A DNA stretch of 62,771 nt, the filler included, from Globobulimina sp. (Eukaryota): assembly GCA_003354225.1 (NCBI GenBank). It is 43 parts of 43 records of this genome, joined end to end, with 100 filler letters (N's around TTAATTAATTAA, not from the genome) between each part and the next. Parts side by side here need not be neighbours in the genome. Positions count along the whole stretch, not along the records: positions 39,492 to 40,853 come from PIVH01017940.1; 42 more parts are not named here. One strand, given 5' to 3'. Under the pieces are notes generated by a model. It saw nothing but the letters and a program-made list of their open reading frames with translations, ran no database searches and was not told the DNA's origin. Position numbers and translations under genes: made by a program. This document shows, one piece after another, positions 1 to 52,544 of the stretch (its first letter is position 1; each line of letters begins with the position of its first letter).

Positions 1-1364
1 TAATATCCTTTGCTTTGTCAAATTGTTTTTGTGATTTAATATTTATATATTTTAAATGCATATTTTTATTTAATTTTTTGTATTTTTGAGCAATATTATT
101 CAAAGCATTTACAGCGGAATAATCATAAACAATGCAATTTTCTAAAGATACCTGAACAAGGTCAGGGTCATGATTCCAATCAAAAATGGTGGCCAATACA
201 TGAGAATTGCTAAACATTAATGGTCCATTTAAAGTATATATTTTAATCCCATCTGCTAAGTTGGAGCATGATTTTAATTCTTTTGCCGAGTCTCTGCTAT
301 ACATTAACGAAGCAAACACCACGCCGCAAATTATCGCAATCCCCAAATTGGTTGCAATTGTCAGCGAAGTCACCAATACAATGATAAAAGCATCACTTCT
401 ATGTATTTTGCGATGCAGTCCATATTTGTTTCTGATTGTCTGTGGTAAAAATGTAACAATTATTATCGGGATAGACGACCATTGAAATGTATGGTATACC
501 ACAACGATCATCAAACCAATTAATGCCGCAGCGGGGACTGAGGCCAATGCAGACGATGCAAAAAATACAATGAAAAATGTCGATATTGAACAGGTTACAC
601 CACTCCAACGATAACGTCCATTCGCTACATAACAATTCACTGTCGATAAGCCAATGGTGGAGCCGCCACTTTTCATATATTATTATTATATTTTGTATTA
701 TTACTATTTGTATATAGATAAAATATATAAATGTTTACATACCCCATTGCGCCCAAAAAACCGCATGCAAAATTTGCAGCTCCCATTGCGATAATTTGTA
801 ATTTTGTGATGAGCTCACATTTCTCGACGCTTTGCGGTCTCGTATTGGTCAAATCGTGTACGACTTCAATAGTTAATAAATCCTCAACGGTCGACACCAA
901 AGCAACAGTAACTGACGGTACTAATATTTTCTTTAATGTCGCAAAATTGATTGGTGGCAATGGATCCCAATACGAATCGACAAATGGTATTTTTGGCAAA
1001 CCTCCAGATAAGTCACCTAAATCTCCAATTAATACCGTTTCCAATTTGAATATATAGCGAACAACCACCCATTCAATAAATGTGCCAATAAACAATGCAA
1101 TTAATGTCGATGGCAAAAATTGAAAATAACGCGGCAAATATTCAACAATCAAAAGCGTCATTATCGTAATGAATATCATTAGAAACAATTCAATATAAAA
1201 AGAATCGTTTTTGTGTTCGTGTTTGTTATTCAATTCATCGAAAGCAGTGAATTGACTCATTGCTATGATCACAGCCCCACCATTGACAAAGCCAATCATA
1301 CACGAATGGGGCACCAATGTTATTAATTTGGGGACTCAGAATAAAACCCGTACCAATATAATGA
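1..1364 (-). CDS. SulP/SLC26 anion (sulfate/bicarbonate) transporter with STAS domain, partial, spliced
   Basis: Motifs VPHSCMIGFVNGGAVIIAMSQ, GAANFACGFLGAMG|GGSTIGLS and LNGPLMFSN..YDYSAVNAL (STAS). A GT-AG intron at 742..669 joins the exons in frame. Confidence 0.9.
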
Positions 1365-1464: not shown

Positions 1465-2621
1465 AAAACACCCTCATAATGCAACAGATTGTCGCGTAAA
1501 TAAGCGGGCCGAATGGGAGTAAATGGAGTCAGCGCAGAAAGAGGCTCCGTCAACGCGGCACTGCCAACCACGTCCAATGTGGCGATAACTTGTCTGCCTC
1601 CGTTCGTGTCATACGTCCAAAAATCAAACGAGCCGCCGGGACATGACACGGCGACGTCCGCTCGGCCTGATTGCGGCAAAAAAACGGCATTCGTGACCAG
1701 TCTGGGCATATCCTCGTCATTTTCGCCGTGCACTATCACGCCGTCTCTGGCCAATAAATATATGGTGCACTCACCGTCGGCAATGTAATAAGTGGGCGGC
1801 ACCTCAGTGGTTTCGATCACAGCAATCCTGAACTTCAGCCATGTCCCGGCCGTCATGCATACGCTGGGCGCAAACTGCCCGTTTACGAAATAGGTGTCGA
1901 TGGAGCCGGGTTGTCCGGCGGAGGGCTTAGTGTAATCCCAGACATAGTCCCAAGTGCGGTTCAGCATCGTCCCGTATTTCAGGAAGTGAATGTGTGTGAT
2001 AAAGAATATGATCTCTTCCATATTGCTGTACCAAGCAGGCAATCCCTCCATTTCTACGTCGTCTTCGATGATAAGTGCCCCGGCGGCACCCGCTGCGACC
2101 TGCAAATGAGTGGATCCGTGGTGGTGAGGGTGCCACCAATGAGTGCCTCCGGAATGATCGCAAGGCACATTGTAAATATATGTGTGTTGCTCGCCGGGCG
2201 CTATGTTGACGAAGACCGAATCTCCGGCGCTCGTACCGCTGATATGACATCCGTGGGTGTGCATGTTTGTGGTGTTTGGGTCTTTCCACACATTCATTGT
2301 TGTCGGATTGTACGGCGATTCTGGCCCCAAATTATTTATTACAGTCACTTGATACTGATTGCCGCGTTCAAAGCGCACAGTTTGTGACGGGAACGAATCG
2401 TTGAATAAACGAGTGGTTATTTGCGCATTGATGTTGGCTGCTGGCCAGGATATTGTTGATACGTCGAATACAAATGTGGTGGCATATACATTGGCTGATA
2501 CTGTCGTCCATTCAATATCATTGCCACTGGCTCCATGCCGAATTGCTTGAGGCTCTGTTAAACATAAACAACGCAAAAGGCCAATATTATGGACCACGCA
2601 AAACAGAAACAACAACAACAT
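1465..2621 (-). CDS. Secreted multicopper oxidase (laccase/CueO-like), 3' truncated
   Basis: Hydrophobic N-terminus MLLLFLFCVV. Copper motifs TNMHTHG and HWWHPHHHGS. LLARDG and SGRADV in cupredoxin domain 2. Confidence 0.9.
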
Positions 2622-2990
2622 TTTTATTCGATTTTTATTCGGGAAAACGAAATGATGAGTTAGTTGCCACTTCAAGAAAAACTTAAGTATGACACATTTC
2701 GATACAAAAATAAATATCCTCAAACATCATATAAAATATGTCCATAAATCACGTAAAATACCACAATGCAGTGGTGTATCGGATAAGTTGAAGATGATAA
2801 ATCAAAATATGATCATATACAAGAGCANNNNNNNNNNNNNNNNNNNNNNNNNNNNNNNNNNNNNNNNNNNNTTAATTAATTAANNNNNNNNNNNNNNNNN
2901 NNNNNNNNNNNNNNNNNNNNNNNNNNNAAATTAACATTAAATTCTCCAAAACAAAAGTCAATTAACAAATACACTTTAAACATTGTTTTT

Positions 2991-7371: not shown

Positions 7372-8535
7372 GCTCCTGTGAGTCCTGTCGACTGTACTAT
7401 CTGTCAACACAGTTATTATGATGGATGTAATACGTGTTCCTGCGACGCGCGAGGTTCACCATCCTGTACAGATATTAGTTGTTATACACTCGGTGATCCA
7501 TATTGCATCGAACCAACGTTAACCACAACAACAACACGTTTGTAAAAAACAATATATACAACAAAAAAGTACGCAAAATCACACAATACAATTTTCCAAC
7601 AACAAATAGCAAGCGCCACTTATGACTGTGGTAATTGCAACACGTATTATGATGGATGCAATGAGTGTTCGTGTGGTGAGAGAGGAATCGCAGTCTGCAC
7701 ATTAATGTATTGTCCAGCTGAAGAAATGGGGGCTGCGGTTTGCCATGAATGTAAAGCAGGATCCATTAAAAAGGATGGTGACTGTGTAAGTATTGACTGT
7801 CTTAGTTGTCAGTCATACAATGATGGCTGTAATGATTGTAGCTGTGGTGAGGGCTCTGTATTAGCGACATCACCGACATGTACAGAAAAATATTGTTTTG
7901 CCGAAGGTGTAGCGTCTTGTACAACCTGTGTGGATGGCTATAATTTAGATTTTTATGGTGGTGAATGTGTGAGTTGTGAGCCTGTAAATTGTTTTGTGTC
8001 GCCCTGTGCAGTAACGAGTGCAACCTGTTCCTATCCAGGTGCTGTATGTATGGATGATTATTCATGTGGTTGTGATTTTTATTTTGCCGATGGACATGGC
8101 ACTGCATTGACTGCAGAACAGTGCACTGCTACAACTGCAGAACCTGTGAGTACAGCACAAACAGCTGCGGGTGGTACGGGTATAACAAGTGTGGGAGATA
8201 TTGGCTGTGATACATGTGATGGACTGTATTATGATGGATGCAATCATTGTGTTTGTGACGAGCGGGGATTGCCAGTATGTACAGAGAGGGCATGCTTTGT
8301 TATGGGAGAAGCATTTTGCACGTATGATTGTAGTAATTGTCAAGCATATTATGATGGATGTAATGATTGTGAGTGTGATGGGAATGGTGCAGTAAGTTGT
8401 ACTGAAATGGCTTGTGATGGAAATGAAGCAACAACGCCGTATTGCGATGTGTTTCACTCAGTGGGAGAAGCAAATAAATTTGGAACAGTGGTGGGGATTT
8501 TATGTGGTGTTACAATAATGTTATCTTTCATATAA
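7372..8535 (+). CDS. Cys-rich surface protein with five pacifastin-like repeats and a GPI-signal-like C-terminus, 5' truncated, spliced
   Basis: Five copies of Y[YN]DGCNxCxC..CTxxxC. Hydrophobic C-terminus with no cytoplasmic tail. Confidence 0.75.
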
Positions 8536-38866: not shown

Positions 38867-39391
38867 TCATTGCAAAGTGACTTCTTTGTCATTACCACCT
38901 TCCTTTTGTTGAATATCTTGTTCAATAACCAATGGTACAGACGGTTCAATGTCTTCCTGTCCATGTTGTGGTACTGATTGATATCCTCCTTTATTATCTT
39001 CATTCATATCATTTTCTTGTCTATTATCTTCATTTGGTATTGACTGATATTCATATCCTCCTTCATCATAATAACAGCCACACCGACATAACCAACATAA
39101 TCCTAAACAAAATATGCATTGTAATGTATAGATTAAACAATTACAACATCTCCTATATGGTCCTGGAGGATGATGTCTGTATGCCGTTGGGAATGCTCTT
39201 GGTCCACCAATTCTAAATCTAAACCAACGTCTTGGTGGACCTCGGCCTCTTCCCCATCTTCCCCGTCCTCCTCTTCCTCTGCCTCTTCCTCCTCCCCACC
39301 CTCCTCTTCCTCCTCTTCCTCCTCTTCCTCCTCTTCCTCCTCTTCCTCCTCTTCCTCCTCTTCCTCCTCTTCCTCCTCTTCCTCCTCTTCC
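38867..39391 (-). CDS. RGG-repeat protein with Cys-rich hydrophobic segment and acidic tail, 5' truncated (absent from the ORF track)
   Basis: Continuous frame: (GRG)n..WGRGRGPPRRWFRFRIGGPRAFPTAYRHHPPGPYRRCCNCLIYTLQCIFCLGLCWLCRCGCYYDEGG..EVTLQ*. Confidence 0.7.
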   Translation of the reverse strand, partial: GRGGRGGRGGRGGRGGRGGRGGRGGRGGRGGWGGGRGRGRGGRGRWGRGRGPPRRWFRFRIGGPRAFPTAYRHHPPGPYRRCCNCLIYTLQCIFCLGLCWLCRCGCYYDEGGYEYQSIPNEDNRQENDMNEDNKGGYQSVPQHGQEDIEPSVPLVIEQDIQQKEGGNDKEVTLQ

Positions 39392-39491: not shown

Positions 39492-39938
39492 GTACGCGTT
39501 GTTACGTAATTCGCTGCGAACGCGCGGTTTAATGGCTTCGATGTCGTGCTGCGTTTTATGTTTTAATTTGGATTCGTAATGTTTGGACATTCCAAGGGCC
39601 CATTCGTGTAATGCTTCGGCGGTATAATCTGGACCACGCTCTGAGCCGTCACCTAAAAAGGAGCCGTAAGCCATTAATCCGCGTAAATGGAAGACTTCCT
39701 CGCCGTGATTGATACTCTTACCGCTGATAACCACACTGCCATCAGGACCTACGAAATCACACAATGGTGGCACTTCATAATGAGCCACTTCACCGAAATA
39801 ACCAATGCCACCTACACAGATTGCTACAATTACGAGGAAATAAAATGCCCAGTAATTCTTATTCGATAATGTCGCGATCCAATTCGTTTTCGCTGGACGT
39901 AAAATCCATTCATCTTCGTTTGCTACTTCGCTTGCCAT
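39492..39938 (-). CDS. Quinol-type nitric oxide reductase (qNor/NorZ) family, NO-dismutase-like, N-terminal part
   Basis: N-terminal TM helix, then PPLCDFV..GEEVFHLRGLMAYGSFLGDGSERGPDYTAEALH..VRSELRNNAY. Confidence 0.88.
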
Positions 39939-40519
39939 AACTATATGGAATATGTAATTAGATATATATTTTTTTGTTACATTGCTATTATTTCGTGCAT
40001 TAATTGGAAAACGATGCTGTATGTATCAAATTCTGTATGTATCACATCTTTTTTTATTTTCGTCTTGCAATCAAACTAGCAATGTAAGCAATGTAACCAA
40101 TGTTAAAAAAGGACAGAACTGTTGACAGTATCGAAGGGATAATCGGGTGTAAACAAAGATTAGAAGGAAGGAATGAGAGGTAAGTTGGTTGGTTTTTTTT
40201 GTTGTTGATGTTTACTAACAGAAGTTAGAAAATTTCTAATACTTATATGGACTACGACCACTACGACATTGGCAATTACGCAGATAATCAATGTCAAGGT
40301 GTTTGTATTTCAGATAATCAATTGATTGATTGCATTCTGTTTAATTATGATACGTGCAATATCTATACAATAATATGTAACAACGTTTTCGCGCAAAACC
40401 GAAAGCAAATCTGACAGAAGGGATTTGGAGCAAATTAATTATTAATTAGATAAAATAACATAAGTTTATTTGTTGCTAATCGTAACGATGTGTTGTATGT
40501 CATTTTTGTCATCAACAAA

Positions 40520-40853
40520 TCACCTTTTTTTAGCAAAAAAAAATCTTCCTCTGCCCATTTGTCCGCTTCTTTTCAATATCCCCTCATTCACCATTTTATT
40601 CAAATTATTTCTAATCTCATTCCTCTTTAAATCATGATAATGTTGCACTAATTTTGAAATTACACATATTTTATTTTTTAATACATATTTTTTAAACTCA
40701 TTATATTCACTTTCATCACTTTCATCATCTTCCTCTTCCTCTTCCTGTTCCTCTTCCTGTTCCTCTTCCTCATCATTGCTGGATTCACTTAAATCCTCAT
40801 TCTCTTCCAATTCATATTGTTTTTCATTTTTATATTTCTCATTGTCCGTTCTC
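40520..40853 (-). CDS. Acidic low-complexity protein with C-terminal winged-helix-like domain, partial
   Basis: Poly-E tract followed by EIRNNLNKMVNEGIL. Confidence 0.55.
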
Positions 40854-41029
40854 NNNNNNNNNNNNNNNNNNNNNNNNNNNNNNNNNNNNNNNNNNNNTTA
40901 ATTAATTAANNNNNNNNNNNNNNNNNNNNNNNNNNNNNNNNNNNNNNNNNNNNAAATAAGCGTAAATAATGGAAAAAAAAAACAGAATTAAAAATAGTAA
41001 ACATTTAAAAGAGACAAATAATGAATCTG

Positions 41030-51363: not shown

Positions 51364-52544
51364 TATCTTCCTCCCATAGATACACCAAGGTTCGTATCTC
51401 CATAGCCACCTTGTTTTGTTTTGATACTTTGAACTGTTCGCTCAGGTGCATTCAGCGTCATGTTAATATCAACAGATGAACGTGTTGATAGCTCAGAAGC
51501 TGCCATCGGTTGTGTTCCATAAGAGAAGTTATTTGCAGCAGGTCTACCATATCCACTGAATTGCGTACGGTTCATTTGAGCAGGAGTGGCAGGTGTATTA
51601 ATTGTAAATGTCATTGCATCGACAATAGCATTTTTTATTTCAATAAACTTGTCAACATAACCTGATATGATTGAAAACGCTTCTTTGAATGGTGCAGTCA
51701 TAGCATTGACTATTCCACTGAAATTACCACTTAGGGCGGCACTGAGTACAGCTGCTGCAGAAATTATTGGAGAAAATATTACTTTAGCCAGGTTAGATAC
51801 AGCAGTTTTAACTAGTGTAGCCAATGCAGTAAACTTCTCGGCTATATATGCATTTGTCTCGTTAACAAATGTGCGTACTTGAGACAGCAATCTATCCCAG
51901 TGTTTAACAAGATAAAGACCTGCAGCAACTAGTCCGCCTATTGCAGCAACAACTAATCCCGCAGGACTGATTAAGAACGCAAATGCCGCCGCCAATATGC
52001 CTATAGCAGTGGACGCGAGTGTTGCGACAAAACCTAAAGCACCAATGATAATAAGCATCGGAGGTATAATGGCAAGTATTCCTAAGAACAGGAATGTCAG
52101 TCTTGCAAGCTTAGGATTATTTAATACAAATTTATCCATTGCAGATTTTGCACCACCGAGGAAGTCAATGAATTTTTGCATCTTAGCTTTGATACTGAAC
52201 ATTCTATCCATGTGCATAAATACAGCCGCTGATGCAATGAACAATTTATCTTTTATGTTTGATAGTAAGCCACCTAATGTTCTAGATATGAGGTCCATAT
52301 TGTTTAGATATTTCTCAGCATGAATTTGACGCATTGCTTTATCAAAAATTTCAAATGGTATCTTACCTTTAGATGCAAGTTTCTGGAATGCAGCAACTGT
52401 CATCTTAGTACCTTTTGCCAAGGTAACTAGTAATGGCAAACCGCGCTCAGAGAACTGCATGATTTCTTCGTTGAGTAGTTTTTGTTTTGCTCGAACTTGA
52501 CCATATACAAATGCTAAATCTTTAATCGGTTTACCAGTACCCGC
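51363..52544 (-). CDS. Phage tail tape measure protein, 5' truncated
   Basis: KDLAFVYGQVRAKQKLLNEEIMQFSERGLPL..SRTLGGLLSNIKD, Ala/Gly-rich hydrophobic middle, LVKHWD. No introns. Confidence 0.92.
   Translation of the reverse strand, partial: AGTGKPIKDLAFVYGQVRAKQKLLNEEIMQFSERGLPLLVTLAKGTKMTVAAFQKLASKGKIPFEIFDKAMRQIHAEKYLNNMDLISRTLGGLLSNIKDKLFIASAAVFMHMDRMFSIKAKMQKFIDFLGGAKSAMDKFVLNNPKLARLTFLFLGILAIIPPMLIIIGALGFVATLASTAIGILAAAFAFLISPAGLVVAAIGGLVAAGLYLVKHWDRLLSQVRTFVNETNAYIAEKFTALATLVKTAVSNLAKVIFSPIISAAAVLSAALSGNFSGIVNAMTAPFKEAFSIISGYVDKFIEIKNAIVDAMTFTINTPATPAQMNRTQFSGYGRPAANNFSYGTQPMAASELSTRSSVDINMTLNAPERTVQSIKTKQGGYGDTNLGVSMGGR

Follow-up and report, generated by a model that had tools for sequence, protein, structure and literature searches.

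The closest described systems to the gene considered here, a NorZ-family gene (quinol-dependent nitric oxide (NO) reductase, qNor) cut short in a 62,771-nt stretch of Globobulimina sp. DNA (hereafter the window), are the foraminiferal Nor homologues and putative NO dismutases (Nod) of Globobulimina, Nonionella stella and Bolivina argentea (PMC6783311, PMC8153729). In the excerpts on which we draw for these and all other papers cited, Woehle 2018 placed Globobulimina Nor next to Nod and measured nitrous oxide (N2O) (PMC6783311), while Gomaa 2021 described foraminiferal Nor that lacks the quinol site, has catalytic mutations in common with Nod and would 'likely function as Nod' (PMC8153729). Woehle 2022 found Nor homologues in 10 of 10 Peruvian rotaliids sampled (PMC9231491), and a 2024 preprint names a separate 'eukaryotic Globobulimina clade' (bioRxiv 10.1101/2023.11.21.568154). 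Like these genes, the window gene belongs to the NorZ family by bacterial ancestry, lies in AT-rich, fragmented DNA with eukaryotic neighbours, nests with Nod-like sequences and appears to be multi-copy; its nearest relative, the metagenome locus L088 (93% identity), has an accession prefix given in PMC6783311 for its foraminifer-associated metagenome. There is no substantive difference from them, the window copy comprising just the N-terminal 149 codons.

Further removed are the Nod of 'Candidatus Methylomirabilis oxyfera' and strain HdN1, for which Ettwig 2012 gave the definition: an FeB His changed to Asn, a nearby Glu changed to Gln, and no proper quinol site (PMC3413370). These proteins share with the window gene the qNor fold, the N-terminal transmembrane (TM) helix and the heme-less cytochrome c-like domain, and share all three defining changes with its relatives, but identity is about 47-52%, the window gene falls in a separate clade of 18 sequences within a eukaryotic context, and the gas measured from the window organism includes N2O (PMC6783311). 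The marine 'Alpha-type' and 'Gamma-type' Nod of oxygen-deficient zones (bioRxiv 10.1101/2023.11.21.568154) also have the Nod-like signature, and a locus bearing a contig name cited in that preprint (L115) is 47% identical to the window fragment; unlike the window gene, they are bacterial genes from metagenome-assembled genomes (MAGs), lie in dense operons and fall outside the 18-sequence clade. Canonical qNOR (Geobacillus stearothermophilus 3AYF, Neisseria meningitidis 6FWF, Alcaligenes xylosoxidans) has the same domain order and fold family, whereas it is about 30% identical, has a GHGxY Ca2+ loop where the window gene has GDGSE, and differs from the window gene's relatives in that these lack His328, Glu332 and Asp746 and have His560 replaced by Asn and Glu581 by Gln.

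Our analysis indicates that the contig at positions 39492-40853 very probably comes from the nuclear genome of a protist with AT-rich DNA, the likeliest being a denitrifying rotaliid foraminifer, and carries the 5′ end of a horizontally acquired, Nod-like qNor/NorZ gene of bacterial ancestry. The gene is genuine and ordinary for such a source, most likely a member of the foraminiferal Nor/Nod-like family; both this family and the hypothesis that it makes oxygen are already known. The contig thus holds no new kind of gene, and what it contributes is independent support for host encoding through a probable intron and eukaryotic context. For three points, namely the probable intron in the 5′ untranslated region (5′UTR), the reading of GHGxY to GDGSE as a change at a Ca2+ site, and the use of the loop as a predictor, we found no earlier description in the excerpts at hand, and supplements such as Data S1C of PMC6783311 may hold them. 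Foraminiferal denitrification is a sizeable marine nitrogen sink, and whether its NO step yields N2O, a greenhouse gas, or N2 and O2 carries biogeochemical weight.

The gene fragment, its relatives and the Ca2+ loop

The window strings together contigs of similar length taken from a highly fragmented assembly: 43 unlinked pieces of 1361-1364 bases each, separated by 42 linkers that each read 44 N, TTAATTAATTAA and 44 N (84 runs of exactly 44 N). Because the pieces are merely joined by linkers, physical linkage to the Nor gene is limited to 39492-40853, which is one entire 1362-bp contig. The first-pass annotation had assigned the gene to this whole interval; a gene is indeed present, but those coordinates are the contig's own and the coding part is an N-terminal fragment on the minus strand. 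Its features are as follows.

39492..39938, minus strand: 5′ end of the likely Nod-like qNor/NorZ gene (translation P0001); ATG at 39938, 149 codons, cut by the contig end
39786..39854, minus strand: predicted N-terminal TM helix, about residues 29-51, YWAFYFLVIVAICVGGIGYFGEV; a hydrophobic run aligned with TM1 of solved qNORs, boundaries estimated
39627..39653, minus strand: GDGSERGPD loop (residues 96-104), counterpart of the canonical qNOR GHGxY loop, mapped by eye on the PDB alignment

The translation contains the peptide GLMAYGSFLGDGSERGPDYTAEALH, from which a qNor-family N-terminal domain had first been proposed, and the profile and structure matches confirm that assignment. In P0001 a short, acidic N-terminal segment leads into a single TM helix, after which comes the first half of a heme-less cytochrome c-like domain, the order characteristic of qNor/NorZ. 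Residues 62-149 match the NorB cytochrome c-like domain PF22085 (E 7.8e-18, 65.9 bits where the cut-off is 29; positions 4-96 of the 181 in the profile), and residues 27-149 align with the N-terminal region of solved qNORs (3ayf_A, E 7.5e-11, residues 35-147; 6fwf_A, E 6.4e-10). The family match is far beyond chance. The N-terminus is no longer than in bacterial homologues and is net acidic ahead of the helix, so no presequence has obviously been added. All 149 codons are intact and each invariant residue of the alignment is retained.

The catalytic C-terminal domain, whose recovery had been proposed as a check, was not obtained: tblastn with six relatives as queries found no other Nor piece in the window, each query matching only 39492-39923, and a metagenome scan yielded L088, which reaches only about residue 295 and is frameshifted. 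The gene nevertheless goes on and is cut only by the assembly, since a Logan contig of a public sequencing run (X1) extends 25 letters past 39493 and continues the reading frame as in the relatives (judged by eye).

Of 297 candidates from a protein collection, 21 are relatives at E <= 0.001; PF22085 is present in all 21, and the catalytic domain PF00115 in 16 of the 16 that exceed 700 aa. The best of them has E 4.6e-56 and 67% identity. The closest matches are two fragments (P0002 and P0003, 66-67%) and three full-length proteins of 769-788 aa (P0005, P0004 and P0008, 60-66%), with P0005 the closest full-length relative at 66%. A scan of one genome per GTDB species matched 232 stretches, of which 208 encode a relative; the best of these matches is only 56% identical to P0004, a member of the window gene's clade, while identities to the window gene within that clade are 58-67%.

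A maximum-likelihood tree (IQ-TREE, LG+C20+F+G4) was built from 156 kept N-terminal columns of 66 rows, among them 25 loci of named genomes, 16 of metagenomes, 21 database proteins and 3 outgroups, selected by hand for spread, with most of the 160 fetched loci left out. The Nod-like rows separate from three canonical qNors with 100/100 support, and the window gene lies on the Nod-like side, as does a Methylomirabilota MAG locus that carries GDGGERGPD, HNFYW and STMQ (L063). The comparison with ordinary NorZ that the first-pass annotation had proposed therefore comes out in favour of its Nod-like placement. The window gene groups with L088 at 98/93, inside nested clades of 14 (96/91), 17 (95/82) and 18 rows (100/99). 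The 18-row clade contains no row of a named bacterial genome (0 of 25, the Methylomirabilota MAG included), and its sister group is not settled by the tree.

In the alignment, the sequences of the loop at residues 96-104 are LGHGSYMGPDY in Geobacillus, GHGAYQAPDW in Neisseria and Alcaligenes, and LGDGSERGPDY in the window gene. In the Alcaligenes enzyme (AxqNOR) a Ca2+ ion bridges heme b and heme b3, with Gly76, Tyr78, Glu407 and heme propionates as ligands (PMC6713497, Fig. 3 legend). Counted by eye on the alignment, Gly76 and Tyr78 correspond to the second Gly and to the Tyr in GHGAY, so that the window loop keeps the Gly while the neighbouring His has become Asp and the Ca2+-ligating Tyr has become Glu. 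The first-pass annotation had taken GHGxY as canonical and GDGxERGPD as resembling the Nod clade, and this holds in our 66-row alignment: His stands in 3 of 3 canonical rows and Asp in 63 of 63 non-canonical ones. The Tyr position is more variable in the latter (Glu 54, Leu 5, Met 2, Thr 1, Asp 1), and the Leu and Met residues all come from seven deep-branching rows of about 40% identity (P0014, P0015, P0017, P0018, P0019, P0021 and P0022); the Ca2+ site may thus differ among Nod-like subgroups.

In the full-length relatives that carry it, the GDG loop comes with the Nod signature. Among ORFs (open reading frames) of the loci fetched from genome and metagenome collections, 154 of 160 contain GDGxxRGPD, and HNFYW and STxQ occur in every one of the 132 GDGxxRGPD ORFs of at least 700 aa; as these genome loci were retrieved by peptide patterns built on the GDG/ERGPD loop itself, the 132/132 means that GDG implies the Nod signature and not the reverse. 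In the alignment, His508, Glu512 and His559 are kept and position 560 is Asn in all 49 rows that reach the catalytic domain (residue numbers are those of the G. stearothermophilus qNOR), Gln occupies position 581 in 48 of 48, and the quinol-site columns of filled non-canonical rows have His at 328 in 1 of 51 and Glu at 332 in 0 of 52. In the three canonical plasmid qNors (Ralstonia, Fulvitalea, Shewanella) the nine positions read H, Y, H, E, H, E, H, H, E, 3 of 3 each. P0005, compared by eye with 3ayf, has Ile at 328, Ser at 332, Asn at 560, Gln at 581 and Gly at 746, where 3ayf has His, Glu, His, Glu and Asp. From such sequence patterns, the window gene likely belongs to the Nod-like branch. 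GDGxxRGPD is a practical N-terminal marker for a Nod-type active site, and as all 132 full-length relatives with the loop have such a site, 5′ fragments as short as this one can be assigned to this branch.

Upstream structure and host encoding

Between the ATG and an acidic ORF further upstream lie 581 nt with no long ORF on the minus strand (40519..39939), and GC content is 27% over 40001-41000, which agrees with the roughly 580 nt of AT-rich non-coding DNA reported at first pass. The accompanying remark on a missing Shine-Dalgarno sequence also stands: nothing purine-rich precedes the ATG (...CATATAGTTATG). Sites resembling sigma-70 promoters are not in excess (8, against 6.0 +/- 2.4 in shuffles), and neither are intrinsic terminator-like sites (0, against 1.0 +/- 0.8). 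In composition, the spacer and the upstream ORF match the remainder of the window.

We compared Logan contigs of four public runs with the 39492-40853 piece. Run X1, which matches the piece best and may be its source, covers 39918-40327 continuously with exact contigs, one of which (record 4, 39918-40063, 0 differences) crosses from the coding part to the AT-rich DNA upstream of it. Two runs from two other studies, both probably of RNA, X10 (depth 561) and X4 (depth 7.9), instead connect about 40120/40123 with 39938/39940, leaving out about 181 nt. The skipped stretch (minus strand, 40119..39941) starts with GTTCTG and finishes with CATATAG, and the two letters between the sides of the joined records are explained by one-base differences of related copies. 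The intron that had been named as something to look for is thus probably present, and two features are added.

39941..40119, minus strand: probable spliceosomal 5′UTR intron; 179 nt, GT..AG, 27% GC, ending 2 nt before the ATG
40120..40208, minus strand: probable 5′UTR exon 1; upstream depth of X4 and X10 is confined to bins 40090-40227, and the 5′ limit is approximate

The X4 record ends in adapter letters at 40208. Many sequence variants cover the stretch in every run, which points to a multi-copy family; run depths were not used to rank expression, run shares below 0.2 (X6-X13) were given no weight for habitat or host, and coverage holes were taken as proving nothing.

Host encoding of the Nor gene is likely, as first proposed, because the skipped GT..AG stretch fits a spliced 5′UTR, because the setting is AT-rich and gene-poor, and because the nearest relative sits beside a Pumilio-repeat ORF. 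In L088, a 1635-nt contig whose 93% identity extends over residues 63-136, the Nor-like part (3-783) needs three reading frames over about 780 nt, with at least two frameshifts, and its similarity to Nor ends near residue 295, just ahead of the Pumilio-repeat ORF at 790-1209 (PF00806, E 1.8e-13) that comes straight after. The locus holds a Nor copy, decayed or wrongly assembled, in eukaryotic surroundings. Another marine metagenome contig (L131, 1387 nt) has a papain-family cysteine protease ORF (2-391, plus strand; PF00112, E 1.4e-11) immediately upstream of a Nor homologue that belongs to the same clade, and a third locus (L081) is 67% identical to the window gene at 31% GC. No Pfam family was found in 29 of 30 ORFs flanking clade members (0 of 5 ORFs with a family in L082), gene-poor surroundings that hint faintly at non-bacterial DNA. 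The window's own pieces are mostly 27-40% GC, yielded Pfam families in 16 of the 40 long ORFs scanned and, taken as a whole, are eukaryotic: their domains include actin, SBDS, WD40 propellers, PPR, a C2H2 zinc finger, SNARE, a choline-transporter-like protein, a C-type lectin and an aquaporin.

Could the fragment come instead from a bacterium associated with the protist, either because the whole contig is bacterial or because a bacterial gene was misjoined to eukaryotic DNA? The family is bacterial in origin and widespread, as the 208 GTDB-species matches attest, and associated bacteria carry Nod-like genes of their own: the metagenome series that yielded L088 also yielded a bacterial-type gene (L097, 1808-3061) with 55% GC, which is placed with a Geobacter MAG and matches the window fragment at 47% identity. 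The window contains at least one non-eukaryotic piece, with a tape-measure ORF at 51366-52544; the Nor coding part is 45% GC against 27-30% in its flanks and differs from the upstream ORF in Arg codon choice; and X1 contigs leave 40328-40533 bare. Yet contamination would look like L097, and the window gene is unlike it. The 18-row clade (100/99) holds no named bacterial genome, and the best bacterial identity to a member is 56%. Record 4 of X1 ties the coding part to the AT-rich upstream DNA, and the X1 chain continues to 40327. Two runs, each from a different study, skip the GT..AG stretch, neither a Shine-Dalgarno sequence nor an excess of promoter- or terminator-like sites was found, and relatives adjoin PUF (L088) and papain (L131) ORFs. 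Leu codons are dominated by TTA as in the other genes of the window (8 of 11). We considered the Arg codon contrast as a sign of foreign origin and dropped it, because the window's other genes mix both types, the choline-transporter piece for instance using CGN in 7 of 7. A bacterial source is accordingly very improbable. It is also quite unlikely, if slightly less so, that the gene is host-encoded while the window copy is a dead or truncated paralogue. The frameshifts and early end of L088, the many variants in every run and the mere 149 codons visible here would suit such a paralogue; against it, those codons are intact with all invariant residues, the X1 contig carries the frame beyond the contig end, and an 89-letter X10 contig (record 11, 39625-39713) is identical to the window copy at depth 1764.

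Returning to our reading of the contig as nuclear protist DNA with an acquired Nod-like gene, a number of points count against it. The catalytic domain (PF00115, COX1-like, with 12 helices and six conserved His) lies outside P0001, the contig stopping at codon 149, and every active-site statement about the window gene is consequently made by proxy. The loop rule runs in one direction, as noted above, and the contrast set comprises only 3 canonical qNors and the PDB entries. The tree contains no sequence labelled foraminiferal, the foraminiferal character of the clade being taken from context, L088 and the papers. No intron lies inside the 447 coding bases. At the joints of the 5′UTR intron the shorter sides are only 25 and 28 letters at a min_likeness of 88, in copies that differ slightly, and that X10 and X4 derive from RNA is a guess; with these provisos, the window gene has the structure and context of a eukaryotic gene. 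Arg codons are CGY in 6 of 6 cases in Nor and AGR in 7 of 7 in the upstream ORF, whose linkage to Nor is given by the assembly, as no X1 contig lies over 40328-40533. L088, being frameshifted, tells us that non-functional copies exist.

Possible products of NO turnover

In the mechanism we envisage, the Nor gene would be transcribed from a eukaryotic promoter and its 5′UTR spliced by removal of the 179-nt GT..AG intron. The missing C-terminal domain, if it resembles that of the relatives, would keep the heme ligands and the FeB ligands His508, Glu512 and His559, would have His560 changed to Asn and Glu581 to Gln, and would lack the quinol-binding residues His328, Glu332 and Asp746. The protein would then act on NO supplied by foraminiferal NirK at a heme b3/non-heme-metal centre. 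N2O made with electrons from some non-quinol route has about an even prospect of being the product. Dismutation to N2 and O2 would be doubtful, to much the same degree as a third case, in which the protein has another activity or the window copy is inactive.

That the enzyme is a true NO dismutase (2 NO to N2 + O2), releasing O2 inside the cell in anoxic sediment, was proposed both by the first-pass annotation and by Gomaa 2021; the proposal was sound in outline and was already in print. Every full-length relative shares the Nod signature of Ettwig 2012, no NosZ was found in foraminiferal genomes or transcriptomes according to the excerpted PMC6783311 and PMC9231491, and Gomaa 2021 argues for Nod function from an alignment of the same kind (PMC8153729). 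On the other side, Woehle 2018 measured N2O production in both Globobulimina species and judged the function not to be Nod-like (PMC6783311), which also tells against our Nod-like assignment as far as function goes, and marine nod abundance tracks modelled N2O production (bioRxiv 10.1101/2023.11.21.568154). According to the same preprint excerpt, no Nod has been biochemically characterised, and our literature search on Nod biochemistry gave nothing relevant among the matches listed. No Nod structure is found among the PDB matches, the best of which is the qNOR 3ayf. The retained Glu512, seen by proxy, and the change of Tyr to Glu at the Ca2+ site may also matter here. A dismutase would seem a minority prospect, and the stricter form of the proposal, a genuine dismutase that, lacking a quinol site and having Asn for one FeB His, Gln for Glu581 and a carboxylate (Glu) for the Ca2+-ligating Tyr, needs no external electrons and turns NirK-derived NO into N2 and O2 in a eukaryotic cell, would be unlikely, a little more so than dismutation broadly put. 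Were it true, the O2 would feed an aerobic respiratory chain in anoxic sediment and would explain the missing NosZ; with the hypothesis itself published (Gomaa 2021), only a demonstration would be new.

The upstream acidic ORF and other pieces of the window

The remaining feature of the contig lies at its other end.

40520..40852, minus strand: 3′ end of an upstream gene, 110 codons and stop; ORF 40852..40523, stop 40522-40520, open to the contig end

This ORF has a Glu/Asp-rich acidic tract followed by a small C-terminal domain. It had been described as a poly-Glu ORF of eukaryotic style; the ORF is there, open to the contig end, but its Pfam and Atlas matches do not bear out the eukaryotic diagnosis. 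Pfam gave sub-threshold matches only, and Atlas features point to helix-turn-helix (HTH)/winged-helix clusters that are mostly bacterial (<= 0.90). The C-terminus is possibly winged-helix-like, which we treat as a lead only, one diagnostic of neither eukaryote nor bacterium. It is uncovered in runs X4, X8 and X10. An AATAAA hexamer at 40466-40475 (minus strand), about 50 nt past its stop, is a candidate poly(A) signal and is also expected by chance in such AT-rich DNA. A second poly-Glu ORF, built of GAGGAA repeats, occupies 38870-39391 in the adjoining piece, and any neighbourhood argument from it across the linker is void.

Elsewhere in the window, in an otherwise eukaryotic set, the ORF at 51366-52544 (minus strand) matches a phage tape-measure family (PF20155, E 3.9e-11). 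This piece probably comes from a phage or a bacterium and was binned together with the protist, and its presence means that the set of pieces is not perfectly clean. A 420-aa ORF at 1467-2726 (minus strand) has a multicopper-oxidase domain (PF07732, Cu-oxidase_3) and, at 49% GC and GC3 0.54 (GC at third codon positions), lies well above the window norm; it may be another acquired or contaminant gene. We rejected its identification as NirK, because its PDB matches are of the CueO/laccase type (best E 9e-14) and include no nitrite reductases. Finally, an ORF at 7546-8532 (plus strand) contains a pacifastin-type protease-inhibitor domain (PF05375, E 5.7e-16), an odd find in a protist assembly, as the pacifastin family is mainly known from arthropods.

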